From: Bacteroidota bacterium
GTDB taxonomy: Bacteria; Bacteroidota; Bacteroidia; AKYH767-A; OLB10
Reading direction: 5' to 3'
Assembly (NCBI GenBank): GCA_016713525.1
Contig: JADJOZ010000007.1
Span: 19,969 to 83,968, forward strand
Length of the DNA: 64,000 bases
A program made the position numbers and the translations under genes. This document shows, one piece after another, positions 782-64,000 of this stretch (position 1 is its first letter; every line of letters starts with the position of its first letter). The notes below the pieces were generated by a model, which searched no databases, was not told the DNA's origin, and worked only from the letters and a program-made list of their open reading frames with translations.

Positions 782-2664
782 TCGTTTACGCTTCCATCGA
801 CCACCTGAATTGGTTGCCAGTTTCCATTCAAATCAACCCGTTCAATAACGTAGTAGTCAACTCCGGTTTCCCAATCTTTATAGGGTGTCCATTTTAAATG
901 GGTTCTGTTCTCATCATCGATAGCACCGCTAAGAAGAATAGATGATCCCGGATCACCTTCTGTGGTTTCCAGATTACACAGGTTGTTTACTTTTATTTTG
1001 TAGTAATAATTCTGCGACTTAACCTGGGTATTAAAATCGGAATAATTGGTTTCAGATGGAGGAAGTGTGGTGAGCAGAGTCCAGTTTTGCATGTCATATG
1101 AGCGGTAAAGTTCGAAATTGGTAACCAGTTGCGGTGCCAGAACAGGTGGCGCCCATTCTGTAAATACATAACTGTCATCGTTAACTGTAGATCGGATGAT
1201 ATCGACTTTCTGGTTTGCCAGAATTCCTGGAGCATCAATTGCTTCTACATCACTCCAGGCTTCAAATCCTTCATTACACAAGTCTGTAGCTTTAATTCGG
1301 TATGCCGCCAGCATGCCACAATAAACCGTTGAATCGATGAAAGAAAAAGTTTTTTCCCCAACTTCAGCGATCAGATTAAAGCTTCCGGTCTGATGATCCT
1401 GACGGAAAATCTGATATTTGGAAACACTGCAACCATCATAAAGATTCCAATCGAGATGTACTGCATTATCGACGATAGCAGTATTTAAATTGATTGTAGT
1501 ATGTGGTGTATGAAGCGACAATTCGGGTTCAGCCATACACTCATTCATAGCCTGAACAATGTAAGTGTATGTTTCAGAAACCGTATTAAGCATGGTATCA
1601 ACAAAGGTTGAGGTAGCATTGAGGGATGTATTACCGGGGTTGGAGTCAGTGTAAATCAAATCAAATACTGACAATACTCTGTTAAACCGATACACTTTAT
1701 AGGCTTCGAGATTTTGAATAGCAAGATTGCCCCAGGTTAGTTCTACTGAACTTCCATCGATCACACTGGCACTTTTGAGTTCAACAACCGGTGGAGGTGT
1801 TCCAACATTTACCTGTACAATTCCTGATAAGGTTGCAGATGCACTGCAAACACCACCATTCACTGCAGTGAGTGTAACCGAATAAGTGCCCGGGACATGG
1901 TAAACATAAGTTGGTTCACTGTTAGAAGTTGATAACCCATTTCCCAGTGACCAGGTAAATTGTGTGGCACTATCAGTCATGAGCGACTGGTTGTGGAATG
2001 TCACCGGAAGGGGTGGACATCCAATATTATTGCTTACATAAAATGCAGGTTGTGGAGTTGCAGCTGCTACTACCGGAATGGTCGTTACCACACTATCGGT
2101 GCAACCAGTTCCATTCTGTGCAATCAATGTTACATAGTAAGTTCCGGGATTATTATAAACATGGGTTGGAGTTGGAGCCATAGATCCTGTTCCATCACCA
2201 AAATCCCATTGATAAGAAGTACTGTTTACAGAATTATTATTGAAGGTAATTGATAATGGCAAACACCCAGTTGTATCTGACATCACAAACGATCCAACAG
2301 CATTGGGTTGCAGATTAAATGGCACTGGACTGGTATAAAACGATTGACAACCGGTAGTATCCTGAGTCATTAAAGTAACTACATAATTACCTGGTTGATT
2401 GTAACTGTGTACCGGATTTTGTTGAGTTGAAGAAGTGCCATCTCCGAAATTCCATATCCAGTTAAACGCACTGATGGATGAATCCTGGAACTGTACCTGC
2501 CAGGGGCCGCACCCGGTTGGAGTTGCTGCTGTAAATGAAGCAACTGAACCGGTAATATGCACCAAGGCTGGTCTGATAAGTGTATCTGAACATCCTGAGC
2601 CATCAGTCACTGTAAGGGGTAACATCGTAGATACCTGGTTCATTATAAATGTGCACAGGATCAT
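766..2664 (-). CDS. C-terminal part of a giant PKD-repeat surface protein (3 PKD domains plus FN3-like domains). Forms one gene with 2603..6559 after a single frameshift.
   Basis: The WxFGDGxxS...NPxHxY...G.Y.V.L PKD signature repeats. The upstream ORF ends ...PGIYDVTPYSD* inside a PKD domain, and this ORF continues ...LTVTDGSGCSDT in another frame. Confidence 0.75.
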   Translation of the reverse strand: MILCTFIMNQVSTMLPLTVTDGSGCSDTLIRPALVHITGSVASFTAATPTGCGPWQVQFQDSSISAFNWIWNFGDGTSSTQQNPVHSYNQPGNYVVTLMTQDTTGCQSFYTSPVPFNLQPNAVGSFVMSDTTGCLPLSITFNNNSVNSTSYQWDFGDGTGSMAPTPTHVYNNPGTYYVTLIAQNGTGCTDSVVTTIPVVAAATPQPAFYVSNNIGCPPLPVTFHNQSLMTDSATQFTWSLGNGLSTSNSEPTYVYHVPGTYSVTLTAVNGGVCSASATLSGIVQVNVGTPPPVVELKSASVIDGSSVELTWGNLAIQNLEAYKVYRFNRVLSVFDLIYTDSNPGNTSLNATSTFVDTMLNTVSETYTYIVQAMNECMAEPELSLHTPHTTINLNTAIVDNAVHLDWNLYDGCSVSKYQIFRQDHQTGSFNLIAEVGEKTFSFIDSTVYCGMLAAYRIKATDLCNEGFEAWSDVEAIDAPGILANQKVDIIRSTVNDDSYVFTEWAPPVLAPQLVTNFELYRSYDMQNWTLLTTLPPSETNYSDFNTQVKSQNYYYKIKVNNLCNLETTEGDPGSSILLSGAIDDENRTHLKWTPYKDWETGVDYYVIERVDLNGNWQPIQVVDGSVNDYIDR

Positions 2665-5600
2665 TTATGATCGATTGATTTCCATCACCAAAATTCCAGT
2701 TCCATTGAATGGCACCGGATGAATTATCATTAAAATTCACGACTGTAGGGGCACATGATACCACGCTATTTAGTGAAAACTGTGCCTGAGGTCCTGTAAC
2801 CTGAACATGTGCAACAGGATTAATTACCTGAGAACAACCTGATGGAGAAGTTGCAGTTAGCGTAACGGGATAAATACCATTTGCTGAATAGGTATGAGAA
2901 AGAGTGTTACCATTCAGTACAGTACCATCACCAAAATTCCATTGCAGGGAACTTACATTTGAGGATGAATCGGTAACATTAAAAGTAAACGGACTGCACC
3001 CAACCGAATCGGATACAGCAAATGCCAGAAACATGGCATTGATATTAGGCTTTGATACAGTACGCATACATCCGTTCACATCAGTTACCGTTAAAGTTAT
3101 TACGCCTGCAGGTTTATGATTGTATGTATGAACCGGATTTTGAAGAGTTGAAGTAGCACCATCACCAAAATCCCATAACCAGGAAACTGCATCACTGCTG
3201 CTATCGGCAAACACAGCTTGCACCGGTAAGCATTCCGACGACTGCGTATAATTGAAATTTGCCTGTAGGAATGGTACAAAAACAGCATTCTGTACGGTAT
3301 GAACATCACTGCATCCATCAGCATTGCTAATAAGAGTAACATGATGCGTGCCGGGTAATGAATAAGTATGCGATGGATTTTGTTGAGATGAAGCTGTGCC
3401 ATCACCAAAATTCCATTGCCATGAGCTAGCACCAGTAGAATTATTGGTAAAATTCAGAATTGTACTTCCGCAACCATTCGTTGTAGTGGTGAAAGTAAAA
3501 TCTGATACGGGCTTTCTGATATTAACGAGATATGGAACATTCCAAGTGTAAGTACATCCAAGAGAGTCTGTAACTGTTAACGATACCTGATAACTTCCTG
3601 AATCGGCATATACATGAGAAGGATTTGCAAGTGCTGAGGTGGTTCCATCTCCAAAATCCCAGGAGTAATTAGGGAAGTTCAGATAACCGCTTGTGAAATG
3701 AACAGTGTCATTTGCACAGGCTCTGCGAGTGCTGGCATTCACTGATGCTCCAATAGCAGCATAGTAACTGCGTGACATAAAATCGGTACAACCCAATGAA
3801 TCGGTTACCGTTAGTGATACAATATAATTCACTCCGGTAGTTGTGTAATTGTGAACCGGATTCTCTAATGTAGAAGTTATTCCGTCACCAAAATTCCATA
3901 ACCATGAAACCGCGTTTACAGATGTATTCTGAATAGTTAAAGTTGAACCCAGACAATTGTTGGTATAAGAAAGCTGGAAATCGGCGCTTGAACCGGTAAG
4001 ATAAATTGGTGCCGGCTGAACAATCGTATCGGTATTTCCGAAGGCGTCCCAGGTTATCAGACTAACAGTATAAGTACCGGGATCGGTATAAATATGTACT
4101 GGATTCTCGATTGTAGAAGTATCTCCATCACCGAAATCCCATAGCCAGGCCACAGTATTCAGAGCAGGATTTGTAAAATTCATCTGGTAAGGAATACAAC
4201 TGTAAACCGGATCAGGAACATGAAGCGAATCGCCTCCCCCACCTGGTAAAACAGTTCCGGAGCCAATAGTAACACCAGTATAAACATAAGTGAAAGTACA
4301 CTCCGGATTTGAAATTGTAAGCGTAATGTTGTAGGGTCCGGGGACAGTGTACTGATGAACAGGATTCATTAATGTAGAGGTTCCTCCATCACCAAAATCC
4401 CATAACCACATAGTTGCACCCGAACTGTTTGCATTAAATGTTGCATTTATAGGCAAGGTTGTATCAGGAGATGTTGCAGTTGCATTGGCAACCAAAGGAA
4501 GGAAAGTCACAGCATAGTTATGATACTCGGTATATGTACATCCTTGTGCAGTAGTTATTGTAAGCGAAACATTGTACGATCCCGGAGTAGTATACACATG
4601 TACCGGATTTTGTTGTGTTGATGTTGTGCCATCACCAAAATCCCATAGCCAGGATACTGCATTTACAGACTGGTCATTGAAAGTTGCTGTGAATGGCGGA
4701 CATAATGTTTGAGTTACATCAAATCCTGCAGAGCCGCCGTTGATTATATAGGTTGCATAGGGAGAAATACTCTGTGAACAACTGCTTCCGGAAGACTGAG
4801 TCTGAAGAGTAACAATATAAGTTCCCGGATCGGTGTAGGTATATACCGGATTTTGAACAGTGGCAGTTTCGCCATCGCCAAACGACCACAACCATCCGGA
4901 AGTTGCCGGAGAATTGTCGTTTAAATTGATAGTAAAAGGAGCACATGCAGTAACAGGTGCCGCCGGGTTAAAATTGTTTACGCCTGAATTAACCTGAATA
5001 TTATTTGGTAAGGTATAGGTATCGGTGCAACCTGTAACATCGGTGATAGTTAAAACAACTGTATAAGTTCCATTAGAAGCATAAACATGAGACGGAGATT
5101 GTTGCGTTGAGCTATTTCCATCGCCAAAATTCCAGTTGTAAGTATAAACACCCCCACCAGGATGTGCAAAATTAACGGTGTGAGGAGCACAACCGGCAAG
5201 ATCGTCGGCAGTAAAAGTTGCATTTGCTTCCGAAACAATAATAGGCAAGAATGAAGAAGCTTGAGCTGTACAACCAAAATTATTTACGATGTTCAGCGTA
5301 GTATAAAATGTTCCGGGTGTGGTATAAGTATGAACAGGTTGAAATCCGTTTCCTGAAGAACCATCTCCGAAAGTCCATGCATAAGTGTTATTGGAACCGG
5401 TCGATAAATTTACAAATGCTGGAGTTAAAGGCGCACACCCCTGATTATTGTTGATCAGGTAATAGGCAGTGGGTTTAGGATAAGATTGAACATGAACCGT
5501 GTCGGAATTAGTACATCCATTTGCATAAATTACTTCCAATTCCAGAATATAATTTCCGGCATAATTGTAAGCATGATATGGATTATAAAGCTGAGAAGTG

Positions 5601-6559
5601 GTAGTGTCACCAAAATCCCACGACCATGAAGTAATGTTGGGAGTTGTTGTTGAAAAAGAAGCATAGATTGGTGTACACTTTTGAAGCGGACTGGTTGATG
5701 CAATTACTGGAACCGGATTTGATTTCACTTCGATATAATCAACAACGGTTACTGTATCGGTACAGCACAATTGATTGGAGGTAATTAAAGTAACTGAATA
5801 AATGCCTGCATTTGAATAAATGTGAGATGGAGATGGTTGTGTTGAAGTAGTTCCATCACCGAATTGCCATAAATAAGATGATGCAGATGATGCCTGAGCA
5901 GTGAACAGAAAGGGTTGCGATACATTACAGGTGCTGGTAATATTTGCCAGAAAAGAAGCAGCCGGATTACTGAGAATGGTGATTAAAGCATTTTTAGATA
6001 AAGAAGCGTTGCATCCCAGTGAAGTATTGTAAGCAATTAAAGTTACTGTGTAGGTACCGGGAGCTGTATACTGGTGAAAAGGATTAACTGATCCGGAAGT
6101 TATTCCATCACCAAAATCCCATAAACATGAATCATATCCGGAAGATTGGTTGGTAAATTGAATCTGATTACTTTCCAGACAAAATAAAGTTCCGGAAGCA
6201 GTAAATGCAACCTGAGGTTGTTGCTGAACTTGTATAAAGCCTGAATGAACCACTGAATCGGACTGACCCGAACTACTTGTTGCAATTAATTTTACGTTAT
6301 AGCTGCCGGTATTCAGGTAAATATTTGTTGGATTTTGAGCAGTGGAAAAATTTCCATTTCCAAAGTCCCAGAAATATGAAATAGCATTAACAGAAGTATT
6401 GGTAAATTGTACAGAAAGAGGAATACAATCAGATTGCTGGTTTACTGTAAAAGAAGCATCAGGTACCTGTGCAAATGAGGTTGAAGCTTGCAATATGAAT
6501 ACTGCAACCAACAAATAAATCAGGTTTCTAATGCCCTTGAATATCCTTTCAGGATTCAT
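2603..6559 (-). CDS. N-terminal part of the giant PKD-repeat adhesin (signal peptide plus about 16 tandem PKD domains)
   Basis: N-terminal signal peptide MNPERIFKGIRNLIYLLVAVFILQASTSFAQ. There are 16 WxFGDG PKD signatures spaced about 80 aa apart. The run of gggg at 2616-2619 on the + strand causes the apparent frameshift. Confidence 0.8.
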   Translation of the reverse strand: MNPERIFKGIRNLIYLLVAVFILQASTSFAQVPDASFTVNQQSDCIPLSVQFTNTSVNAISYFWDFGNGNFSTAQNPTNIYLNTGSYNVKLIATSSSGQSDSVVHSGFIQVQQQPQVAFTASGTLFCLESNQIQFTNQSSGYDSCLWDFGDGITSGSVNPFHQYTAPGTYTVTLIAYNTSLGCNASLSKNALITILSNPAASFLANITSTCNVSQPFLFTAQASSASSYLWQFGDGTTSTQPSPSHIYSNAGIYSVTLITSNQLCCTDTVTVVDYIEVKSNPVPVIASTSPLQKCTPIYASFSTTTPNITSWSWDFGDTTTSQLYNPYHAYNYAGNYILELEVIYANGCTNSDTVHVQSYPKPTAYYLINNNQGCAPLTPAFVNLSTGSNNTYAWTFGDGSSGNGFQPVHTYTTPGTFYTTLNIVNNFGCTAQASSFLPIIVSEANATFTADDLAGCAPHTVNFAHPGGGVYTYNWNFGDGNSSTQQSPSHVYASNGTYTVVLTITDVTGCTDTYTLPNNIQVNSGVNNFNPAAPVTACAPFTINLNDNSPATSGWLWSFGDGETATVQNPVYTYTDPGTYIVTLQTQSSGSSCSQSISPYATYIINGGSAGFDVTQTLCPPFTATFNDQSVNAVSWLWDFGDGTTSTQQNPVHVYTTPGSYNVSLTITTAQGCTYTEYHNYAVTFLPLVANATATSPDTTLPINATFNANSSGATMWLWDFGDGGTSTLMNPVHQYTVPGPYNITLTISNPECTFTYVYTGVTIGSGTVLPGGGGDSLHVPDPVYSCIPYQMNFTNPALNTVAWLWDFGDGDTSTIENPVHIYTDPGTYTVSLITWDAFGNTDTIVQPAPIYLTGSSADFQLSYTNNCLGSTLTIQNTSVNAVSWLWNFGDGITSTLENPVHNYTTTGVNYIVSLTVTDSLGCTDFMSRSYYAAIGASVNASTRRACANDTVHFTSGYLNFPNYSWDFGDGTTSALANPSHVYADSGSYQVSLTVTDSLGCTYTWNVPYLVNIRKPVSDFTFTTTTNGCGSTILNFTNNSTGASSWQWNFGDGTASSQQNPSHTYSLPGTHHVTLISNADGCSDVHTVQNAVFVPFLQANFNYTQSSECLPVQAVFADSSSDAVSWLWDFGDGATSTLQNPVHTYNHKPAGVITLTVTDVNGCMRTVSKPNINAMFLAFAVSDSVGCSPFTFNVTDSSSNVSSLQWNFGDGTVLNGNTLSHTYSANGIYPVTLTATSPSGCSQVINPVAHVQVTGPQAQFSLNSVVSCAPTVVNFNDNSSGAIQWNWNFGDGNQSIINDPVHIYNEPGIYDVTPYSD

Positions 6560-15726: not shown

Positions 15727-16820
15727 ATGACAACATTTCAAAAACTTTATCAATTACCATTCCAACATGGAATAGATCTGTACTTATAACAGGTTTACTT
15801 GATCAAATTTGCGATCAAGTAATTTCAGATAAAATTGAAAATGATGTAGAACTTTTGATTTCCAATAATGGTTCAGATGATAACACAGAAAATGCTTGTC
15901 TGGCTTATAGAAATAAATTCAATTTCATTACATATCACAATAATGGAAGAAATATAGGAGCACAGGACAATGTACTAAAATGTTTTGAACTGGCATCAGG
16001 AAAGTATATCATTCTGTTTGGTGACGATGACAGAATCCAAACCGGTGCCATTAAACAAATTTTACATGTTCTAAGATCAAATACAGGGATTGATTTGATA
16101 CTAGTTAGTTCAAATTTAAAGTCAAATCCTTTTAGTGATGGTTCATTTATAAATCTATTACAACTAGTAGAAAACTTTTACTATAATATTGGCAATGCAG
16201 GTTTATTCATCTATAAAGTATCTCTTGCAAAAAATGTACTTGCAAAACATCAATTTTCTGATTTTAATAAAAGTTGGCCTCAAACCCAGTTAATGGTTCT
16301 TGGAATAGAAGATATTCACAAGTCATCATGTTTAATAACAGAAATTAAAATAAATGCTCCGGGACTTCATGAACAAGTTATGGTATATAGTTCATATTAT
16401 CTTTATCGTACAACATTTTTTGATTTAATTGATTCAATTGAATCTATAAAACATGAAATTGATCACAAGGTATATATATCCTCAAGAAGCTACCTAAGTA
16501 GAAACTTATCACAAGTTTCATTTAACATATTACAATGTGGGATATTTGTAGATGATACAACTCTTAGAATTAAAACCAGAAAACATATATTTAGTAATTT
16601 AAAATTGTTCAATACAAAAGAAAAAATGTATATGAGTTGTATTGCAAGTATATTATATCTACCTACTTTCTTGTCGAAACCACTATCAGACATTTTCATT
16701 TTCATTTTAAAAGGGCGAAACGGACTTATAAAGAAAAATAAATTTGTTCTAGCGGAAAAACAAAAAAAATCAAATCAATTGAACTCCAAATCAAATGAAA
16801 TAAGAGAATTTAGTTTTTGA
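15727..16820 (+). CDS. Family 2 glycosyltransferase; start codon ATG 15727 is separated from the main ORF by a frameshift in an A5 run (15741-15745)
   Basis: MTTFQK joins SITIPTWNRSVL, the GT2 N-terminal motif, and ILFGDDD is the DxD motif. The ORF track starts only at an internal TTG (15855). Confidence 0.6.
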
Positions 16821-24448: not shown

Positions 24449-25090
24449 TTAAGCTGATATCATTCTTATCAATTCAAATGATTCGGCATATTTTTTCATG
24501 ATTTGACCGCCTCTTAAAATTGCCAGTGAACGGATGAATTCAGGATTACTGTATAAACGAAACCCCTGTGATTTATATAAATTGATTGCATCAATATTGC
24601 TTTGAATATGCGATTCTTCAAGCACATTATAAACAAAGGAATTAAAACCAAAATTATTCCATGGCATTTCATATCCTAACAAATTGTTGAATTTAAATGC
24701 CCTCTTACCTTCTTCATAAATGGTTTTGTGGTCCTGATGGATATCACTTGAACTTGGAATAAACACCAGATCTGGTTTTATTTTATTCCTCTGTACAATT
24801 ATTTCTTCAAGGATTTGCTGCCGGTGAGCCGGGAAATCGCGCACTGCAAAATCATAAACGATCAAGTTTTCTCTTGGCACGCCCAAAGAAGCGAGAGATG
24901 CGTACATTTCTTTTTCAATGGTTCCAACTTCGAAACCATCTGGAGTACTTTTTTCGCATAAACTATAAACAATGATGAAAACCTCCTTTTTTTGTGCAAT
25001 CAATTTAGCAATGGTGCCTCCCAAACCGAATTCAGCATCATCGGGATGAGGAGCCAGCACCAATATTCTGTTCACTTCGTTAAATATCAT
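24449..25090 (-). CDS. PIG-L/LmbE family N-acetylglucosaminyl deacetylase
   Basis: The AP(HPDDAE)FGLGGTIAK zinc-binding signature. Confidence 0.7.
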   Translation of the reverse strand: MIFNEVNRILVLAPHPDDAEFGLGGTIAKLIAQKKEVFIIVYSLCEKSTPDGFEVGTIEKEMYASLASLGVPRENLIVYDFAVRDFPAHRQQILEEIIVQRNKIKPDLVFIPSSSDIHQDHKTIYEEGKRAFKFNNLLGYEMPWNNFGFNSFVYNVLEESHIQSNIDAINLYKSQGFRLYSNPEFIRSLAILRGGQIMKKYAESFELIRMISA

Positions 25091-25583
25091 TTTTTATCGT
25101 TTTTATTATTTGCTCACAAATAAATTCAGCACTTCTGCCATCGCCAAAAATTTGAGGAAATCCAATTACCTTGTTTTCCATAAAATGTTTTGTGCCTTCA
25201 CACAATAAATCAAAGTTATTTCCAACCAATCTGGCGTTTCCCGATTTCACCAGTTCCACCCAGGGGGTTTCTTCCAACATAATCAAGCATGGCTTTTCCA
25301 TAAAATACGCTTCTTTTTGAACACCACCTGAGTCGGTAATAACCATATCGGAATACTTTTCAAGTCCGATCATCTCTATGAAGGAGACAGCGGGAATAGC
25401 AAACAAACCTGATTTATTCATCATTGCTGATAAGTCCTGGTTCGAATCAATTAGAATTCGAGTGCGTGGATGAATCGGAAAAATAATCATTTTCTTCAAT
25501 ACATCAATCGAGTAATGAAAAAATCTCAAAATCTCCATAAGGTTTTGAGGATCATCGACGTTCGAAGGCCTGTGTGCGGTCAC
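25080..25583 (-). CDS. wecB: UDP-N-acetylglucosamine 2-epimerase (non-hydrolysing), C-terminal part; frameshift near 25560-25580
   Basis: TAHRPSNVDD then VITDSGGVQKEAYF, characteristic of WecB/NeuC. Confidence 0.7.
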   Translation of the reverse strand: MTAHRPSNVDDPQNLMEILRFFHYSIDVLKKMIIFPIHPRTRILIDSNQDLSAMMNKSGLFAIPAVSFIEMIGLEKYSDMVITDSGGVQKEAYFMEKPCLIMLEETPWVELVKSGNARLVGNNFDLLCEGTKHFMENKVIGFPQIFGDGRSAEFICEQIIKTIKNDI

Positions 25584-26256
25584 TAAAAAAGTAGTTACTA
25601 AGCGGAAGATTCAAAGCTTCACATAAATTCTTGAAGTATGAATCAGCCTTATCTCTAAAATACAGCGTATTATCATACATAATATCACCACACCGGTAAA
25701 CTCTTGGAGAATTTAACAATAAAGCAGAAGATTCTTTAATTTCTAATGAAAATCCTTCCTTTTCTAAACATACCATACCATCATCAGATGGAACAAAGAG
25801 CATTGAGGAAGTGTGATCACATATTAGCCGATTCACTTCTTCAGGAAATATTTTATTGTAAGATCTAACGCCTGCTTCTACATGAATAACAGGTATGTGT
25901 CGCTTCACTCCTACCAGGCATGCTGCCAGTGTTGAGTTGGTATCTCCATAAAGCAGAATTGCATCGGGCTTTTCAGTCTCCACCACATCATCAACGGCAA
26001 TCATTATTTTAGCAGTTTGATGTGCATGGTTTGATGACCCTACATTTAAATTATATTTTTCTTTTGGAATCTTTAATTCCGTAAAAAACACATCCGACAT
26101 ATTGGCGTCATAATGTTGGCCGGTATGCACAATTACTTCTTCAATACTATTCGAAAAGTTGGCAGCAATAGCTCTGCTGATGGCTGCTGATTTAATGAAC
26201 TGTGGACGAGCTCCTACTATGGTTAGTAATTTAATCATGTTTAATCTGATCATCAA
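25552..26256 (-). CDS. wecB: UDP-N-acetylglucosamine 2-epimerase, N-terminal part
   Basis: KLLTIVGARPQFIKSAA...HTGQHYD...LLYGDTNSTLA. Confidence 0.7.
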   Translation of the reverse strand: MMIRLNMIKLLTIVGARPQFIKSAAISRAIAANFSNSIEEVIVHTGQHYDANMSDVFFTELKIPKEKYNLNVGSSNHAHQTAKIMIAVDDVVETEKPDAILLYGDTNSTLAACLVGVKRHIPVIHVEAGVRSYNKIFPEEVNRLICDHTSSMLFVPSDDGMVCLEKEGFSLEIKESSALLLNSPRVYRCGDIMYDNTLYFRDKADSYFKNLCEALNLPLSNYFFSDRTQAFERR

Positions 26257-45555: not shown

Positions 45556-46764
45556 ATGAAAGCGCTCGAAAAAATTTGTCTGACTCTGATTAGCTTACTC
45601 GTAACTAATTATGCTTTTTCACAATCTTCATGTGCACCTACTACTGCACAGTCTGACCTCGACATCAACAATGTTCGCACAACAATTTTAGTTGGTGGTG
45701 ACATGTGGTGGGATCTGACTAGTCCCAAATATGAAATTCCGAAAGGCAGCAATAAACATTCCTTGTATGCCGGATCACTTTGGATTGGAGGCATTGATGC
45801 CGGTGGACAAATTAAAGTTGCAGCACAAACCTATCGCCAATCCGGAACTGATTTCTGGGGTGGCGCTATCGATACTGTGCAGATTGGTATTTCAGCTTCT
45901 AAATGTCTGCAATATGACAGACATTGGAATGTTTCAAAAACAGAGGTGCAGGATTTTATAAATGATCCAACAACAGCAACTAATGATATTAAAAGCTGGC
46001 CGGGTAATGGAGATCCAACATCAAATGAAGGAACATATTTAGCACCATTTGTTGATGTAAATGGTGATGGCACCTATGATTATACCGATGGCGATTATCC
46101 GGGATATAATTTCAGCGGAGTTTATCCTGCTGCACCTGGAACATGTAAAACCGTATGCAATGATTATCTTTTTGGAGACCAGACTATCTGGTGGGTTTTC
46201 AATGATGTAGGTAATATTCATGGTACAGGCTCCGATCCTATTGGTCTCGAAATACGTGCACAGGCATTTGCATTCCAAACCAATGATGAAATAAATAACA
46301 TGACCTTTTATAAATACCAAATTATAAATCGTTCAACAAATACCCTGACCCAAACCTATTTTGGCCAATGGGTTGATCCTGATCTGGGTAACTCTATTGA
46401 TGATTATGTTGGTTGTGATGTTGGCAGAGGACTTGGTTTCTGTTATAATGGTGATGCTGATGATGAAACAGCATCAGGTTATGGTATTAATCCGCCGGCT
46501 GTCGGTGTCGACTTTTTTCAGGGGCCACTAGCTGATATGCTTGATAATATCGATAATGATAAAGATGGCTGTGTTGATTGTACTTTTTGTACCGATTCAG
46601 CAGGAGTTGTTTCTGTTATTCCAGATGATGTTTTGCGTGAACAAATTATCATGTCTAAATTCATGAAATATGACAATGTCAACAATTCTCCGATAGGAAA
46701 CCCGAATGGATTCACTGATTTTTACAACTACCTCCAGGGCATTTTCTCGATGGTCAACCTATGA
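45556..46764 (+). CDS. Large secreted T9SS cargo protein, N-terminal part (signal peptide, Ca-binding-like DxNGDGxxD motif). Forms one gene with 46761..49529 after a frameshift near 46743-46746.
   Basis: MKALEKICLTLISLLVTNYAFSQ signal peptide. DVNGDGTYDYTDGD motif. The other frame continues ...FLDGQPMTYGGNGHD. The N-terminal domain family was not recognised. Confidence 0.6.
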   Translation: MKALEKICLTLISLLVTNYAFSQSSCAPTTAQSDLDINNVRTTILVGGDMWWDLTSPKYEIPKGSNKHSLYAGSLWIGGIDAGGQIKVAAQTYRQSGTDFWGGAIDTVQIGISASKCLQYDRHWNVSKTEVQDFINDPTTATNDIKSWPGNGDPTSNEGTYLAPFVDVNGDGTYDYTDGDYPGYNFSGVYPAAPGTCKTVCNDYLFGDQTIWWVFNDVGNIHGTGSDPIGLEIRAQAFAFQTNDEINNMTFYKYQIINRSTNTLTQTYFGQWVDPDLGNSIDDYVGCDVGRGLGFCYNGDADDETASGYGINPPAVGVDFFQGPLADMLDNIDNDKDGCVDCTFCTDSAGVVSVIPDDVLREQIIMSKFMKYDNVNNSPIGNPNGFTDFYNYLQGIFSMVNL

Positions 46765-49529
46765 CTTATGGCGGTAATGGTCACGACCCCGGAAACCCGG
46801 TTTGCGACTATATGTTTCCCGGCGATACAGATCCTTTGTTCCCAGGTCAGAACTGGACAGAAGCAACTGCAAATAATCCTGTTGGTGACCGCAGATTCAT
46901 TCAATCGGCAGGAGTATTTACTTTGGAACCGGGTGCTGTAAACTATGTCACTACAGGAGTGGTGTGGGCGCGTGCAACAACCGGCGGGCCACAGGCAAGT
47001 ATTGGTTTGCTAAAAGCGGCAGATGACAAAGCACAGGCTCTTTTTGACAATTGCTTTAAACTTATTGATGGACCCAATGCCCCTGATTTAGCTGTTAGAG
47101 AGCTCGACAAAACAATTATTCTCACACTTACAAATACCAATGTTCCTGAAATAGAAAAGTATGTGGCTAAAGATCCTACCATCACCGGATTTCCCGATTC
47201 ATTGACCTACTTTAAATTTCAAGGCTATCAGATATTTCAGTTCAAAGATGAAACTGTTACTGTTGCAGACATAGGCAATCCTGATAAAGTAAGATTAGCC
47301 GCACAATGTGATATTAAGGACGGAATAAGCCAGCTCGTTAACTTTTATTATGAACCCACTCTGAATGCAAATATGCCGATTGAACAAGTAAATGGAAGCG
47401 ACAAAGGTATTACACATACCTTCCTTATTAAACAGAATTTATTTGCCACCGGAAATACTGCATTGATAAATCACCAAACTTATTTCTTTACGGTGGTTGC
47501 CTACGCACATAATAATTACAAAACATACGACCCAAGTGATCCATTTCAGTTAGATGGTCAGAAAAAACCATATTTATCTGGAAGAAACAACATTAAAACG
47601 TATTCTGCAATACCTCATATCCCGAGTGTGGAAAATATTGGAACCATATTACATACCCAATTCGGTGACGGACCTCCTGTAAAAAGAATGGAAGGTAGTG
47701 GAAACGGAGGTATGATCGTTGATTTCACTGAAGCAACTGTTGATGAAATATTAAGTCCCCCCTATTACCGTTCGTTTCAACCTGTTTACAAATCCTTGAA
47801 AGCTCCGGTTAAAGTGAAGGTGTTTGATCCAATGATTATTGATCCATTACAGTATGAAATCAGATTTGATACAATCAGTCCTAATGCTAATTACACACTA
47901 TCATCAAGTGACCAGTCTTTGATCGTGAACTCCGATTACAATATTGCTACGTCAGATGAACTTGTGGTTCCTGAATGGGGTCTCACCTTCCAGGCTTCTA
48001 CTTGCATTGAACCCGGCGACACTCTGGATCCAAAAAATGGCTATCTGGAAAGTTCTATTGAATTTAATAATGAATCTGCAAAATGGTTGTCTGCTGTTGC
48101 TGATGTCGACAATATCGGAGGTGATCCAAAAGATTGGATCAGATCCGGGACTGCTTCAAATGATCCTTATAAAAAAGAGGATGATAAGGAAGTATATGAA
48201 AATGTTGTCAATGGTACCTGGGCTCCGTATAAGTTGGTTTCAAGAGATCCATTTCACCCGAGAATGGGAAATCTTGGTGAAGTAAATATCAGCTTATCAC
48301 CTAATGAGGATACTAAAACAGCAATCAATAGTATTGATGTGATATTTACCGCAGACCAGTCGAAATGGACACGTTGTGTTGTAGTTGAAACCGGAAATCA
48401 GGCAGCTTTAAATATTGGTAATGCCAAACAGTTTGATCTCAGAAAATCAGCATCAATGGGGAAAAATGGAGAGCCCGATAATTCAATCAATTCAACTGGA
48501 ATGAGCTGGTTTCCGGGATATGCATATGATGTTGAAACCGGTGTAAGGTTGAATATTGTCTTTGGCGAAAATTCTTCATTGATTGAAGATAATTCGCAGG
48601 ATATGAAATTCAATCCTACTTCAAGAATTTATGATAATTCCGGTAAAATTGTATTAGGTGGTATGCATTTTATTTACATCATGGGGCATAATGGTGATGG
48701 AGAAACTGATGTACCGCCCTACGATTCATGCCGATATATTTTCAACAAACTCAATACATTGAATTCTACCGATAAAAGAACTGTTTGGAAACATGCTATG
48801 TGGACAAATATTCCACTAGTAACAAGTGATTATGAATCACTCAACCTGCCGGTTGAAATACCTTCCGATGTAAAAGTGAGAATTCGTATAGCCAGAAATT
48901 ACAAACCTATGGCCGGCACAACCGAATTAAGGTATACCGATATTCTTTCAATTGGAACTACCTATTATGTTTCAAAACCTCCGATAACACATAATGGTAT
49001 CACTTATGAATTTACAGGACAAAGCTTTGTTGCTACCACATCTCAATTTGAAGGTCCGGGACGGGTAACTGACCAGATTCCGGCAAACAATTTTATGCCA
49101 TTGTTCACCTTTGGAACAGAGAATCTGGCATCTGAAACTAACAATCAGGAAATTGCTTCGGAAGCACTTCGCTTAATTAATGTTGTTCCGAATCCATATT
49201 ATGCTTACTCAGCTTACGAAAAAAGCCAGCTTGACAACCGGATAAAGATTACCAACTTACCTGCAAAATGTAAAGTAACTATTTTATCTCCGAACGGTAC
49301 TATAATCAGAAAATTCGAAAGGGATGTTCCTACTGATAATACTGCCGGAACTGTGGTTTCGCCGAAATCCATTAATACCGACACAACAATTGACTGGGAT
49401 TTAAAAAACTTAAAAGGTATTCCGGTTTCGGGTGGTATGTACTTAATTCACGTTGATGCTGGTGTACTCGGAACAAAAACAATTAAATGGTTCGGAATAT
49501 TGCGACCAATTGATTTAGATACGTTCTGA
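46761..49529 (+). CDS. Large secreted T9SS cargo protein, C-terminal part, ending in a type-A T9SS sorting domain
   Basis: C-terminal ...LINVVPNPYYAYSAYEKSQLDNRIKITNLPAKCKVTILSPNGTIIRKFE...GMYLIHVDAGVLGTKTIKWFGIL. The combined product is about 1320 aa. Confidence 0.65.
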   Translation: MTYGGNGHDPGNPVCDYMFPGDTDPLFPGQNWTEATANNPVGDRRFIQSAGVFTLEPGAVNYVTTGVVWARATTGGPQASIGLLKAADDKAQALFDNCFKLIDGPNAPDLAVRELDKTIILTLTNTNVPEIEKYVAKDPTITGFPDSLTYFKFQGYQIFQFKDETVTVADIGNPDKVRLAAQCDIKDGISQLVNFYYEPTLNANMPIEQVNGSDKGITHTFLIKQNLFATGNTALINHQTYFFTVVAYAHNNYKTYDPSDPFQLDGQKKPYLSGRNNIKTYSAIPHIPSVENIGTILHTQFGDGPPVKRMEGSGNGGMIVDFTEATVDEILSPPYYRSFQPVYKSLKAPVKVKVFDPMIIDPLQYEIRFDTISPNANYTLSSSDQSLIVNSDYNIATSDELVVPEWGLTFQASTCIEPGDTLDPKNGYLESSIEFNNESAKWLSAVADVDNIGGDPKDWIRSGTASNDPYKKEDDKEVYENVVNGTWAPYKLVSRDPFHPRMGNLGEVNISLSPNEDTKTAINSIDVIFTADQSKWTRCVVVETGNQAALNIGNAKQFDLRKSASMGKNGEPDNSINSTGMSWFPGYAYDVETGVRLNIVFGENSSLIEDNSQDMKFNPTSRIYDNSGKIVLGGMHFIYIMGHNGDGETDVPPYDSCRYIFNKLNTLNSTDKRTVWKHAMWTNIPLVTSDYESLNLPVEIPSDVKVRIRIARNYKPMAGTTELRYTDILSIGTTYYVSKPPITHNGITYEFTGQSFVATTSQFEGPGRVTDQIPANNFMPLFTFGTENLASETNNQEIASEALRLINVVPNPYYAYSAYEKSQLDNRIKITNLPAKCKVTILSPNGTIIRKFERDVPTDNTAGTVVSPKSINTDTTIDWDLKNLKGIPVSGGMYLIHVDAGVLGTKTIKWFGILRPIDLDTF

Positions 49530-60112: not shown

Positions 60113-60676
60113 TTGATTATCAATCACATGAGTTATTGTACTGCAGTTACCTTAATGAAACAAGAAGACCAAAAAGTTCACAAACATTATCATGATAAGT
60201 TATATGGGTATCCCATTTCTGATGATAATGAACTTTTTTGCAGATTAATCCTGGAAATCAATCAAGCTGGATTAAGCTGGTCTACCATATTAAAAAAAGA
60301 GGTCGGATTCAGGAAGGCATATCATAATTTCGATATTAAGAAAGTAGCATCATACAAGGAACGCGATTTCACCCGACTGATGAACGATCCGGAAATTATC
60401 AGGAATCGCTTGAAAATTAATGCCGCAATTGAAAATGCTAAGTCCATACTGATTATCCAAAAACAATTTGGTTCTTTTTTAGATTGGCTCAATCACCATC
60501 ATCCTTTATCAAAAGCAGAATGGGTTGCATTATTCAAGAAAACCTTCAAATTCACAGGCGGCGAAATTGTCAACGAATTTTTAATGAGTACCGGCTACCT
60601 TCCCGGCGCTCATGATGAAGATTGCATAGTGTTCAAGAAAATATTAAAGACTAATCCCAAATGGATGAGGGACTAA
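60113..60676 (+). CDS. tag: DNA-3-methyladenine glycosylase I
   Basis: HYHDKLYGYPISDDNELFCRLILEINQAGLSWSTILKK..., conserved throughout the Tag family. It is 187 aa. Confidence 0.85.
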   Translation: MIINHMSYCTAVTLMKQEDQKVHKHYHDKLYGYPISDDNELFCRLILEINQAGLSWSTILKKEVGFRKAYHNFDIKKVASYKERDFTRLMNDPEIIRNRLKINAAIENAKSILIIQKQFGSFLDWLNHHHPLSKAEWVALFKKTFKFTGGEIVNEFLMSTGYLPGAHDEDCIVFKKILKTNPKWMRD

Positions 60677-60778
60677 TGTACTACTGCTCAGAAGTAAATT
60701 TCGTTACAATGATAGATGATAAATGATAGAGGATAGATTGAATTCTGCTCAGAAACAATTCAGTGCTCGGCTGAAATG

Positions 60779-61170
60779 TCATTATTCAATAATTAATTCT
60801 TGTTATTTGATATTCAATAAAAGCACCATGAAGACAGGCAGAAATAGTGAAGAACCCAATTATGAGTTCTATCGCAGCTTCAAAATATTGAATAACAAAT
60901 ATTGAATATTACAAATTGAATAAGGAAATCGGGAGCGTGTAATTATTCAATTCTCACTTCTTGATAGTCAATATTCAATAAAAGTATGATGAAGGCAGGC
61001 AGAATTATAATTCAGCAGCAGAAATATTAATTTGTGTACTATAGCAGTTTCAAAATATTGAATAACAAATATTGAATATTACAAATTGAATAAGGAAATC
61101 GGGAGCAATATATTATTCAATTCTCACTTCTTGTTAGTCAATATTCACTAAAAGTATTTTGAGAACGAGA
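60779..61170. repeat. About 2.3 tandem copies of a ~165 bp AT-rich repeat unit
   Basis: Copies begin near 60779, 60939 and 61108. The shared core is ...attattcaat..cttg.ta..tattcaataaaag...atgaag.caggcagaa...cagcttcaaaatattgaataacaaatattgaatattacaaattgaataaggaaatcgggagc, and the 56 bp block is identical at 60881-60946 and 61050-61105. Confidence 0.8.
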
Positions 61171-62860
61171 AACCATTACCGTTCGCATCCACCGTTTCCA
61201 TATCCTCCTCACCCCGGCCCTCTCCAGCATAGGCATCCTCCTCCGTAGAACATTTAGGGCTGGAGGGAGAGACGCGGAGAAAAAAAATGGGGGGAAAAAA
61301 ATTTTGAAAGAAGCGGAAAAAAGGGGAAAAAAAAAAAAAAATTTCTCGCTAAATAGATGCACCATTCAATATTTATTTCTAGTTAACAAAATTCAAAAAA
61401 ACATCTTGAGAACGGGAACCCACCAAATTTAGCAACTACAAAATAAATCATAAGTGAAAAACGAAATTTCAATCAGCCCAAAGTCCCCAACTTTTAACTT
61501 TCAACTTTCAACTCAAGTGCAGTGACATCTTTTGACTAGGGAACACACATCACCACCTTTCGACAAGCTCAAGGCAAGAATTACCAAACCTCCACCTTCC
61601 GACAAGCTCAAGGCAAGAATCACCAAATCAAGTGCACTCACATTTTTCTACAGTGGAATAAAAAATCAGCACACCAGCACATTAGCAAATTAATCAATCA
61701 ATTAAAACCTTCTTCACCCACCGCCCCTCTCCCCTTCCCCCCTTTGGGGGGAGATTCTTCTCCCTTTTTTCCTATCAATCAAAAACCCCTCCCGCGTAAT
61801 TCTTTTTTTTTTTTTTTTGGCGGCGGCGGGCGTCCCCCCCCCCCCCATCAACCCCCAACCCCAACCCCGCCTCTTTTCTTTTTCATTATAAATTATATTC
61901 CTTTCCCCTCCCCCTTCGGGGGAGGGAGAAATGTTTTTAGGCGGCGTGCGGGATTTTGGGTTTTTGGCCCCCCCCCGCCGCCCACCCACGCGGGGCCCGC
62001 GCGGGGGGGGGGGGGGGGGGTTGGGGATGGGGGGGGGGGCCGAGGGGGGCTGTTTTACCGCCAAGGGCAAAGGCCCGGGGGGGGGTGGCGGGGGCGCCCC
62101 CCCTGGAGGCCCGGAGGTGGGTGGCCCCTGGGGATTTTTGTTGGAGGGATTAAGGTAGGGAGGAAGGTGAGGAAGTAGTGGCCAAAACTATTTCCCAAAC
62201 AAATTTTTAAATAATTTTTTTTTTCGGGTGCTAATTTTAAAACCCCCAAGGGGAAATTTTTGAAAGGGGTTTTTTCCACAGGGGGTTTTGGGTGGCCCGG
62301 GGGGGGGCCCGGGGGGGGAACTGAAAAGTTACTTGTCAAAGCATTAAGCCACATATAAATACCTTCCAATGGTGAACGCTGTCAAAAATTGATACACACC
62401 ATTGATATCCTGTGCTCAATTTACCGGTGGAAATGGCCAGGCATCGATCAAAATCATAAAGTTCAATCATAGAAAATTTTTTTTAAAAAAACCAAATTTT
62501 AGCCCCCTTTTTTTTTTCACCCCCCCCCCCCCCCCTGGTTGGGGGGGGGTCTATTTTTTTTTGGGGGGTGTGGGTTTCAATTTGGGTTTTTTTGTTAATT
62601 TAGTGTGGTTTTTTCCCAACCCCCCGGCGGGGGGGGGGGGGGGGTGGTGGGGGTTTTTTCTTCCATTGCCATGTTTGATGGCTGTAAGTCCATCCATAAT
62701 AACATCAACCAATGACACATTTTCTGCCCACTTCACCCAATCCTTATCACCGCTCAAGTCTTTTGGAATGCTTGTTTCCTTTGGTAACTCCACAACATTA
62801 ATCATCACACTGGACTTCCTGGACTAAGTAGCTCCACTCAGGGCAAGATCTCCCCGCATC
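61170..62860. other. Anomalous low-complexity segment: long G and C homopolymers (up to about 21 nt), T16 and A15 runs, stuttered doubled-base sequence. This is probably a low-quality or poly-G assembly artifact interleaved with short normal-looking stretches.
   Basis: Its composition is unlike the about 37 percent GC bulk. Examples are ggggggggggggggggggggg at about 62007-62030, ccccccccccccccc at about 61836-61850 and stuttered text such as ggccaaaactatttcccaaacaaattttt. Every ORF in the region translates to poly-G/P/F. Confidence 0.6.
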
Positions 62861-63222
62861 TTTTCCGCCAGCTGGGGGGCCAAGAACTTCTGTATAAACA
62901 GAACACTCATGTGCAGTCACATCTTACTAAAAACTGACCACTGTATGAATTGAAAAAGACCTCATTCTGACCAAAGCCACTTTAAACTTGCACTTTCAAC
63001 CCTCGAGGAGCGAGTATTTTTTTTTACTGAAAAATAAAATAAGCACACCAGCAAATCAGCACATTTAAAAGCAGCCACATCTTTTTACTAATCAACAATC
63101 ACCCATATACCTAACTATCAACACATTACAAATCCCCCAAGTAATATTTTCCAATTTTAGCTCCATTTCCTTTGCTACTCATAACTTTTCACTATTTTGC
63201 CTTCTCAAATTTGAGTTGACTT

Positions 63223-64000
63223 ATGGCAAGAAAACATCCAAAGGCACTCCCCTATCTGTTTCTTTCAGAAATGTGGGAGCGATTCGGTTTCTATTTAATG
63301 TTAGGGATCTTTTTCCTTTACATGACCGATACCCAAAAGGGCGGCATGGCACTCGACCGAAAAGAGGCCTCCGACATTTTCGGAACTTTCATCGCTTTGG
63401 TTTATTTAACACCATTTATTGGAGGACTGTTGGCCGATCGGGTTCTGGGATACAAGTTTTCAATTACGTTTGGCGGAATTTTAATGGGACTCGGTTATTG
63501 TGGTCTTGCGCTGCCTGGTATGACTGCCTTTTATACTTCCATGCTATTAATTATAGTTGGAAACGGATTCTTCAAACCCAATATCTCTACTATTCTTGGA
63601 AATGTTTATAATGATCCCCAATATAAAGATCTGAAGGATTCGGGTTATAATATATTCTACATGGGTATTAATATCGGAGCTTTTATCTGCAATTTCTTTG
63701 GTGCCTATTTGCGAAATGAATTCTCCTGGGGATATGCCTTTATGGCTGCCGGTATCGGGATGTTTGTAGGTGTTATTATTTTCTGGATCGGTGCTAAACA
63801 TTATGCGCATGCTGATGTCCGCAAGCCTGTTAATCCCGAAGATATGTCTCTTTCCAAAATATTTGGAATTGTACTCTTGCCAGCAGTCCTTGCCGGATAT
63901 ATTGGCTGGATATTACCCGGAAATATTTTTGGAAGCGACAGTACCGATGCCTTTATTTTAGGAGCACTTCCTGTGGCAGGTTTCTATGTTTCGTTATTGG
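63223..64000 (+). CDS. Proton-dependent oligopeptide transporter (POT/PTR2, DtpT-like), 5' part; continues beyond the window
   Basis: MARKHPKALPYLFLSEMWERFGFYLMLGIFFLYM (POT signature ExxERFxYYG), GGLLADRVLG, IVGNGFFKPNIS. The frame is open to the window end and is not in the ORF track because it has no stop. Confidence 0.8.
   Translation, partial: MARKHPKALPYLFLSEMWERFGFYLMLGIFFLYMTDTQKGGMALDRKEASDIFGTFIALVYLTPFIGGLLADRVLGYKFSITFGGILMGLGYCGLALPGMTAFYTSMLLIIVGNGFFKPNISTILGNVYNDPQYKDLKDSGYNIFYMGINIGAFICNFFGAYLRNEFSWGYAFMAAGIGMFVGVIIFWIGAKHYAHADVRKPVNPEDMSLSKIFGIVLLPAVLAGYIGWILPGNIFGSDSTDAFILGALPVAGFYVSLL

Follow-up and report, generated by a model that had tools for sequence, protein, structure and literature searches.

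Between the tag gene and a gene for a peptide transporter of the POT/PTR2 family, the 64,000-nt stretch of a Bacteroidota bacterium contig that was analysed here (hereafter, the window) contains, at positions 61170-62860, a text crowded with long homopolymer runs, and the question is whether these runs belong to a genuine element, to DNA of foreign origin or to an error in the assembly. Counting runs of at least 7 nt for A/T and of at least 6 nt for G/C, we found 28 of them here, whereas the remaining 62.3 kb of the window has 32, of which only two are G/C runs. The abundance of runs reported by the earlier note on this DNA is thus confirmed by count, and the excess is far beyond chance for a genome with about 38% GC. 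The T16 and A15 runs given there were located (Table 1), and the C run put at about 15 nt is present and measures C16; the run of about 21 G was an overcount, the longest G run being G18. Mean run length, computed per 100 nt, rises up to 2.0-3.2 in the flagged interval as compared with 1.3-1.7 elsewhere, and the GC fraction per 100 nt goes up to 0.83, the rest of the window having 0.27-0.43 per kb. Rfam and ARAGORN matched no RNA or tRNA element in the whole window, the spacer between the two genes included. Open reading frames of the garbled text had zero matches in Pfam; these frames are by-products of the composition.

The locus is represented in public data by close relatives. Exact-protein look-ups with Tag and with a HlyD-like neighbour returned about 15 public contigs of the same species (NCBI MAGs, ENA assemblies and Logan assemblies of "Bacteroidetes bacterium"), the 182-aa Tag product having an exact match on 13 public contigs. 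The same-species contigs align to the window at 98.5-99.3% identity, nearly without gaps, for up to 15 kb. Of four proteins of the window that were looked up for exact matches, three had no record and one was matched by a 1.3-kb Logan contig alone. Eleven comparison assemblies span the site; 9 of them have a tag-POT spacer of a short form (about 1.35-1.4 kb), unrelated in sequence to that of the window, while the remaining two, GCA_016706985.1 (L003) and GCA_016721705.1 (L005), carry, like the window, a long form of about 3.0 kb. These two match the window at about 99% identity along 15 kb, have a spacer of normal composition and served as the clean reference alleles in the alignments; as all the comparison sequences, they come from other strains (about 99% ANI) and are not the same DNA as the window. 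The long form has two gene calls on its minus strand, of 407 and 93 aa, the shorter one with Por_Secre_tail. The true DNA at the site is almost certainly this long form of the strain-variable spacer. Runs of at least 8 G/C or at least 11 A/T are absent from all 26 related loci. An exact match in GTDB representative genomes or JGI metagenomes was found neither for a 51-mer and a 36-mer of the garbled text nor, likewise, for a 28-mer of a clean island.

Alignment with L003 allowed us to redraw the borders of the damage. The stretch of about 1.7 kb that the earlier note had described as stuttered is really garbled, but in three separate patches, between which normal text is found (Table 1). The two pieces said to read normally are present as islands 1 and 2, but with deletions. 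The tandem repeat downstream of tag reads as clean sequence and should be placed outside the artefact. As for the spacer to the right of the junction, its differences from L003 may stem from error, from true variation among strains or from the two together, strain variation being possible because one variant segment resembles another local repeat copy. From about 63040 the window is identical to L003 again, and the POT region, from 63071 on, has 96.6-98.5% nucleotide identity to the sister loci.

Table 1. Features of the window discussed in the text (positions are those of the window; the clean allele is that of L003)
Feature	Position	Strand	Remarks
G4 tract	2616-2619		Splits a 1930-aa PKD protein
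A6 tract	25585-25590		Splits UDP-GlcNAc 2-epimerase; Pfam halves (positions 7-169 and 186-346) in two ORFs
T4 tract	~46741		Splits a 1324-aa ORF; the tract is T5 in L003 and in an Illumina contig
tag (DNA-3-methyladenine glycosylase I, PF03352)	60128-60676	+	Left flank, intact; Pfam Adenine_glyco
Natural tandem repeat of ~170 bp, ~3 copies, with a 14-nt sub-repeat	60777-61177		Repeat families D2/D3, TRF; also in sister loci
Start of the flagged interval, normal	61170-61264		100% identical to L003/L005
Garbled patch 1, A/G-rich, with A15	61265-61350		86 nt vs 60 nt in the clean allele; 44.6% identity, 32 extra bases
A15 run	61327-61341		
Clean long-form-specific spacer and 3' end of the T9SS gene	61351-61717		367/367 bases identical to L003
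Last 8 codons and stop of the T9SS gene (...VKKVLID*), clean	61694-61717	-	Stop placed from L003 ORF 15857-16222
Garbled patch 2, where the sorting domain and the C-terminal part of the propeller are encoded	61718-62320	-	603 vs 597 nt, 55-60% identity
T16 run	61803-61818		
G18 run	62003-62020		Longest run
Island 1, readable gene remnant (SMIELYDFDRC...GRYLYV..NALTSK)	62321-62470	-	~P0001 residues 228-281; 23 nt of frame-breaking deletions
Garbled patch 3, with C16, G16, T10 and G9	62471-62660	-	190 vs 197 nt, 49.8% identity, 80 substitutions
C16 run	62520-62535		
G16 run	62629-62644		
Island 2, readable remnant (DL.GD...NVSLVD..IMDGLTAIKHGNGR)	62661-62772	-	~P0001 residues 125-162; 11 nt deleted
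Junction	62773-62807		~430 nt of the clean allele absent (L003 16970-17400): 5' third of the gene, signal peptide, start
Spacer homologous to L003 17406-17700	62808-63040		Seven deletions and some substitutions
POT/PTR2 peptide transporter gene	63226-64000, runs off the window	+	Right flank, intact; 544-aa PTR2/MFS gene in sister loci

The damage has a peculiar anatomy. Identity to L003 is 100% over 61351-61717 and falls to about 50% from 61718, which makes an abrupt edge. Inside patches 2 and 3, 40-50% of the bases are substituted, indels are few and the length is nearly the same in the window and in L003 (273/270 and 330/327 nt for the two halves of patch 2, 190/197 nt for patch 3); patch 2, aligned to L003, has 230 substitutions and few indels. 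Ungapped identity at the colinear offset amounts to 0.45-0.53, as against 0.24-0.25 ± 0.03-0.05 at 600 other offsets, and for patch 2 taken alone to 0.45-0.49 over a background of 0.24-0.25. In 214 of 310 substitutions (69%) the new base is a copy of an adjacent true base, whereas 2000 shuffles of the new bases among the sites gave 44 ± 2.8% with a maximum of 53.7%, and mean run length is 2.4-3.3 in the garbled text vs 1.42-1.47 in the clean allele. All four reference bases are affected (A 140, T 76, C 55 and G 39 of the 310), and the bias of the new bases changes along the text, being towards C/T in 61718-61990 and towards G in 61991-62320 (78 of 123); patch 3 has the same layout, with C on the left and G on the right. 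The islands are almost free of substitutions, yet have lost bases relative to L003, 23 nt in island 1 and 11 nt in island 2. Because the same 11 gaps against island 2 are found in all six other homologue loci, 85-90% identical to L003, the island deletions belong to the window alone and disrupt a conserved frame.

What lies beneath the garbled text can be learned from the clean allele. Judging by its sequence, it is a minus-strand gene of about 1.5 kb that would encode a protein of about 500 aa with a T9SS type A sorting domain. Its parts are a signal-peptide-like leader (MKVFRVLFFVTILAIIASGLHAQ), an all-beta body of about 390 aa and the C-terminal sorting domain, detected in L003 15857-16222 (minus strand) by TIGR04183 (33.2 bits, cut-off 23) and PF18962 (27.8 bits, cut-off 27). 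In the leader, the all-beta body and the C-terminal Por_Secre_tail the clean allele is like T9SS type A cargo proteins (Por_Secre_tail, TIGR04183), while the window copy differs from them, its C-terminal domain and 5' third being unreadable or missing. Homologues of the 407-aa ORF of L003 number 2708 at E ≤ 1e-5; almost all are about 500 aa long and, where a name is given, they are mostly called "T9SS type A sorting domain-containing protein"; several paralogues of this cargo family occur per genome. The closest homologue (98% identity), here designated P0001, comes from ENA short-read contigs, where the gene stands in a different context and has about 90% nucleotide identity. The body of the gene matched no Pfam or NCBIfam family. 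The AF2 (AlphaFold) model of P0001 (pLDDT 72.7) is all-beta, Foldseek related it only to generic WD40-like propellers (TM 0.3-0.48), and sequence matches of the body in PDB were limited to marginal WD40 repeats.

In the window, a tblastn search with P0001 recovered residues 125-346, colinear on the minus strand and with many in-frame stops (E = 3e-14). Together with the clean sister alleles, this agrees with the suggestion of the earlier note that the peptide-like text is real coding sequence running into junk: its "MIELYDFDRC" and "GIYMWLNALTS" correspond to SMIELYDFDRC and GRYLYVGSNALTS of the real protein and its "NVSLVDVIMDGLTAIKHGNG" to NVSLVDSMFIMDGLTAIKHGNG, while the opening "MINVVELPKETSI", the first 13 or so residues of the peptide read there, has no counterpart. 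Only about 260 nt of the gene are normally readable in the window. No sorting-domain family was matched by ORFs of the window itself, the region in question being inside garbled patch 2. The signal peptide and an intact frame are likewise lacking, since about 430 nt with the start and the leader are absent and the frame is broken repeatedly. As written, the window's copy of the gene is non-functional. The proposal that a gene had been destroyed here by the artefact fits the colinearity of the clean sister-strain T9SS gene with the damaged text.

We are nearly certain that the flagged text is an artefact of some kind. The earlier note had called it a probable assembly artefact, and comparison with the clean sequence of the sister strains bears out an artefact that wrecked a real gene. 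As to its origin, the anatomy of the damage and the types of errors elsewhere in the window lead us to infer that the text probably results from a failure of long-read consensus calling or polishing over a real locus. The rest of the window is accurate, but three other genes are split in it by homopolymer errors of ±1 nt (Table 1), and a one-base change in each restores a single ORF, which points to an assembly of long-read or flow-based origin. What characteristically remains as error in nanopore assemblies is the homopolymer indel, and polishers may leave or introduce errors where read mapping is ambiguous (PMC11232133).

The proposed course of events is as follows. Over a metagenome backbone built of long reads (nanopore-type), column-by-column consensus or polishing would have failed, this being the most likely cause, where an insert is present in some co-occurring strains and absent from others, so that few or conflicting reads would be available for the backbone; pile-ups are apt to conflict at such a strain-polymorphic spacer. 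Three patches would then have been miscalled, with about half of their bases replaced, mostly by copies of neighbours and with G being favoured on one or the other strand. By such miscalling, an ordinary sequence would be smeared out into homopolymers while keeping its length; the better-called islands would lose bases here and there, and some 430 nt would drop out at the 5' end of the gene. The likeness to long-read consensus failures consists in the frameshifts of ±1 nt in homopolymers elsewhere, in the location of the damage at a site of strain presence/absence and in its anchoring to backbone columns, hence the conserved length. However, typical residual errors of nanopore assemblies are single-base homopolymer indels, whereas here there are blocks of 600 nt with about 45% substitutions and runs such as G18 and C16. 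The sister MAGs of the GCA_0167... accession series were presumably obtained by a pipeline of CANU, Racon, medaka and Illumina-Racon, run with --include-unpolished. To our knowledge, no published description of a polisher contains exactly such a neighbour-copying, G/C-biased smear, and a literature search for an artefact with this exact signature gave nothing specific, only general statements on polishing errors. A counterpoint to a consensus failure is that the long-form-specific segment 61351-61717 was called perfectly, so that coverage of the long form was not uniformly poor.

A bad fill from poor read tails is a possible, albeit unlikely, source of the garbled text. According to this explanation, which is that of the earlier note, untrimmed low-quality 3' tails of reads served to extend or gap-fill across a break at the strain-variable locus, and the tails from the two sides met in the middle of each patch; they would stem from Sanger traces whose late peaks had merged or from Illumina reads affected by heavy phasing or by dark-cycle G calls. 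The stuttered text of doubled bases, the roughly retained length and the G/C bias flipping with the strand are features that the window shares with read-tail artefacts, and peak merging or phasing would indeed give neighbour-copying substitutions that keep the length. The C/T bias on the left and the G bias on the right of the two large patches fit inward-facing reads with one bias in common, but in read orientation this bias would be C, not G. Similarly, identity declines from about 65-80% near 62320 to about 44% near 62000, as it would along a minus-strand tail, whereas the left edge at 61718 jumps from 100% to about 50% with no gradient. Further differences from read tails are that the A/T runs are as long as the G/C ones, that A15, T16 and T10 are not dark-cycle G, and that the errors of the islands are all deletions (23 and 11 nt), a type that Illumina sequencing does not produce. 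Nor are the three homopolymer frameshifts of ±1 nt elsewhere a signature of short reads or of Sanger sequencing. The simple two-colour poly-G origin suggested by the earlier note would agree with the complementary G/C bias, which is seen in the letters themselves; beside it, though, stand A15, T16, T10 and C16, the abrupt edges, the island deletions and the frameshifts.

A foreign or chimeric origin of the text, which the earlier note had admitted as an option, is very improbable. The GC fraction of up to 0.83 in a genome of about 38% GC might be taken for a mark of DNA joined in from another organism or locus, and the loss of about 430 nt of the gene at 62773-62807 might be read as a bad join. 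Yet the sister strains' native locus and the garbled text are colinear almost to the base, with identity well above background, both flanks run on into the same spacer, and the text has no relation to the short-form spacer; the colinearity largely refutes the foreign origin. Two particular sources of bases were also considered and rejected. Short-form reads forced into the long backbone would not account for the text, as comparison with both strands of the L001, L002 and L012 spacers gave no clear colinear peak (maximum 0.33-0.43), although the pile-up may have suffered from such reads in the form of gaps. For mis-recruited reads of paralogues, just 36 of 356 substitutions match any of the three paralogue alleles, and L003 is still the best template.

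Equally hard to accept is that the sequence is genuine, that is, a pseudogene remodelled in vivo by phase-variable tracts, by mutagenesis of the retroelement type or by a slippage-like process. A T9SS-secreted protein would be a plausible target of variation. However, 0% divergence directly adjoins about 50% divergence here, and we know of no natural process that would produce such a combination in patches. The substitutions arise from all four bases and are not adenine-specific, 17 G/C tracts of at least 6 nt plus A15 and T16 are gathered within 1.4 kb with the frame destroyed throughout, no such tract is present in the 26 related loci, and the garbled text has no independent occurrence. That genuine DNA underlies the text, the cargo gene having been remodelled by neighbour-copying, strand-biased hypermutation in sharply bounded patches, has in our opinion hardly any probability; were it so, the mutational process would be unprecedented, and the evidence is heavily against it.

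Two known systems of variation do not agree with these data. A phase-variable contingency locus has one or a few tracts in the promoter or the 5' coding region, with length polymorphism among strains and a gene otherwise conserved, and this pattern is not matched by the 28 runs here, which extend over 1.4 kb, comprise all four bases and are separated by text that is also substituted; tracts at the corresponding sites were found in none of the sister alleles. In the case of the variable region of a diversity-generating retroelement, the substitutions should be confined to adenines, while here 170 of the 310 fall on T, C and G and neighbours are copied.

The feature belongs to no biological family and is probably a local consensus failure. 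The homopolymer stretch is not a biological element and has value as a data-quality flag only, with no real feature behind the runs. The region 61265-63040 (about 1.4-1.8 kb) is unfit for annotation, for translation and for calls based on composition, such as those of horizontal transfer, G-quadruplexes or phase variation. A patch of this kind can be flagged by a retained length, neighbour-copying substitutions, a strand-complementary bias and abrupt edges against 100%-identical flanks. The useful results are the corrected coordinates of the bad patches, a recognisable signature for finding similar ones and the identity of the buried gene, which is an unremarkable member of the very large family of T9SS cargo proteins.

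Three genes of the window are each split at a short homopolymer run. The giant PKD-repeat protein gene is represented by ORFs of 632 and 1318 aa, and removal of a single base from the G4 run (2616-2619, plus strand) at which they break yields one unbroken ORF of 1930 aa; this split is probably a homopolymer-length sequencing error. The two ORFs of the UDP-GlcNAc 2-epimerase match positions 7-169 and 186-346, respectively, of the PF02350 profile, and with one base fewer in the A6 run they become a 391-aa ORF containing ...NYFLVTAHRPSNVDDP... At ~46738-46741 the window has T4, as opposed to T5 in the sister MAG L003 (GCA_016706985.1) and the Illumina contig L006; as a result, a 1324-aa ORF, unbroken in the sister MAGs, is divided into ORFs of 402 and 922 aa, and an extra T makes it whole again.

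Residual indel errors are also present in the sister MAGs L003 and L005 (GCA_016721705.1). The clean copy of the T9SS cargo gene used as reference, that of L003, itself has a frameshift (16146-16222) at the transition from propeller body to sorting domain: residues 2-392 and 394-490 of the closest homologue, P0001, lie in different frames. L005 has additional small indels. A 67-aa ORF, for which the sister MAGs carry no gene call, overlaps a segment of higher GC content that contains an 11-bp inverted repeat (CCCTCTCCAGC / GCTGGAGAGGG); the N-terminal part of the ORF is overwritten in the window by the first garbled patch (61265-61350).

Features of the window (coordinates refer to the window unless stated otherwise)
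Feature	Position	Strand	Remarks
PKD-repeat protein genes	766-2664 and 2603-6559	minus	break at G4 run (plus strand), 2616-2619
UDP-GlcNAc 2-epimerase (PF02350) ORFs	25080-25583 and 25552-26256	minus	break at A6 run, 25585-25590
Split 1324-aa ORF	45556-46764 and 46761-49529	plus	break at T run, ~46738-46741
~170-bp tandem unit	60777-61177		about 3 copies, with 14-nt sub-repeat AAATATTGAATAAC
67-aa ORF (…ALNVLRRRMPMLERAGVRRIWKRWMRTVMVSRSQNTFSEY)	61138-61365; L003 15325-15528	minus in window	kept in L003 and L005
CAACTTT heptamer	61488-61513		3.7 copies
39-bp tandem duplication	61546-61623
Direct repeats	61642-61691 and 63016-63065		78% identical over 50 nt; either side of T9SS gene
35-nt repeat family	61509, 61624, 62903, 63061		either side of T9SS gene

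The spacer between the tag and POT genes (60676-63226) exhibits both presence/absence and replacement polymorphism among strains of ~99% ANI. Its long form (L003, L005) is ~3.0 kb and holds the T9SS cargo gene; the short form, found on the comparison contigs L001, L002, L004, L012, L013, L016, and L017, is ~1.35-1.4 kb, without genes and unrelated in sequence to the long one. Natural repeats are abundant in the spacer of the window, and the copy number of the ~170-bp unit varies from strain to strain. The direct repeats and the 35-nt family bordering the T9SS gene could provide a route for gain or loss of the insert. A homologue of this gene, P0003 (86% identical), adjoins an IS66-family transposase set on the JGI metagenome contigs L023-L025, with a phage-type integrase nearby, and mobile elements may act as carriers of members of this T9SS cargo gene family.
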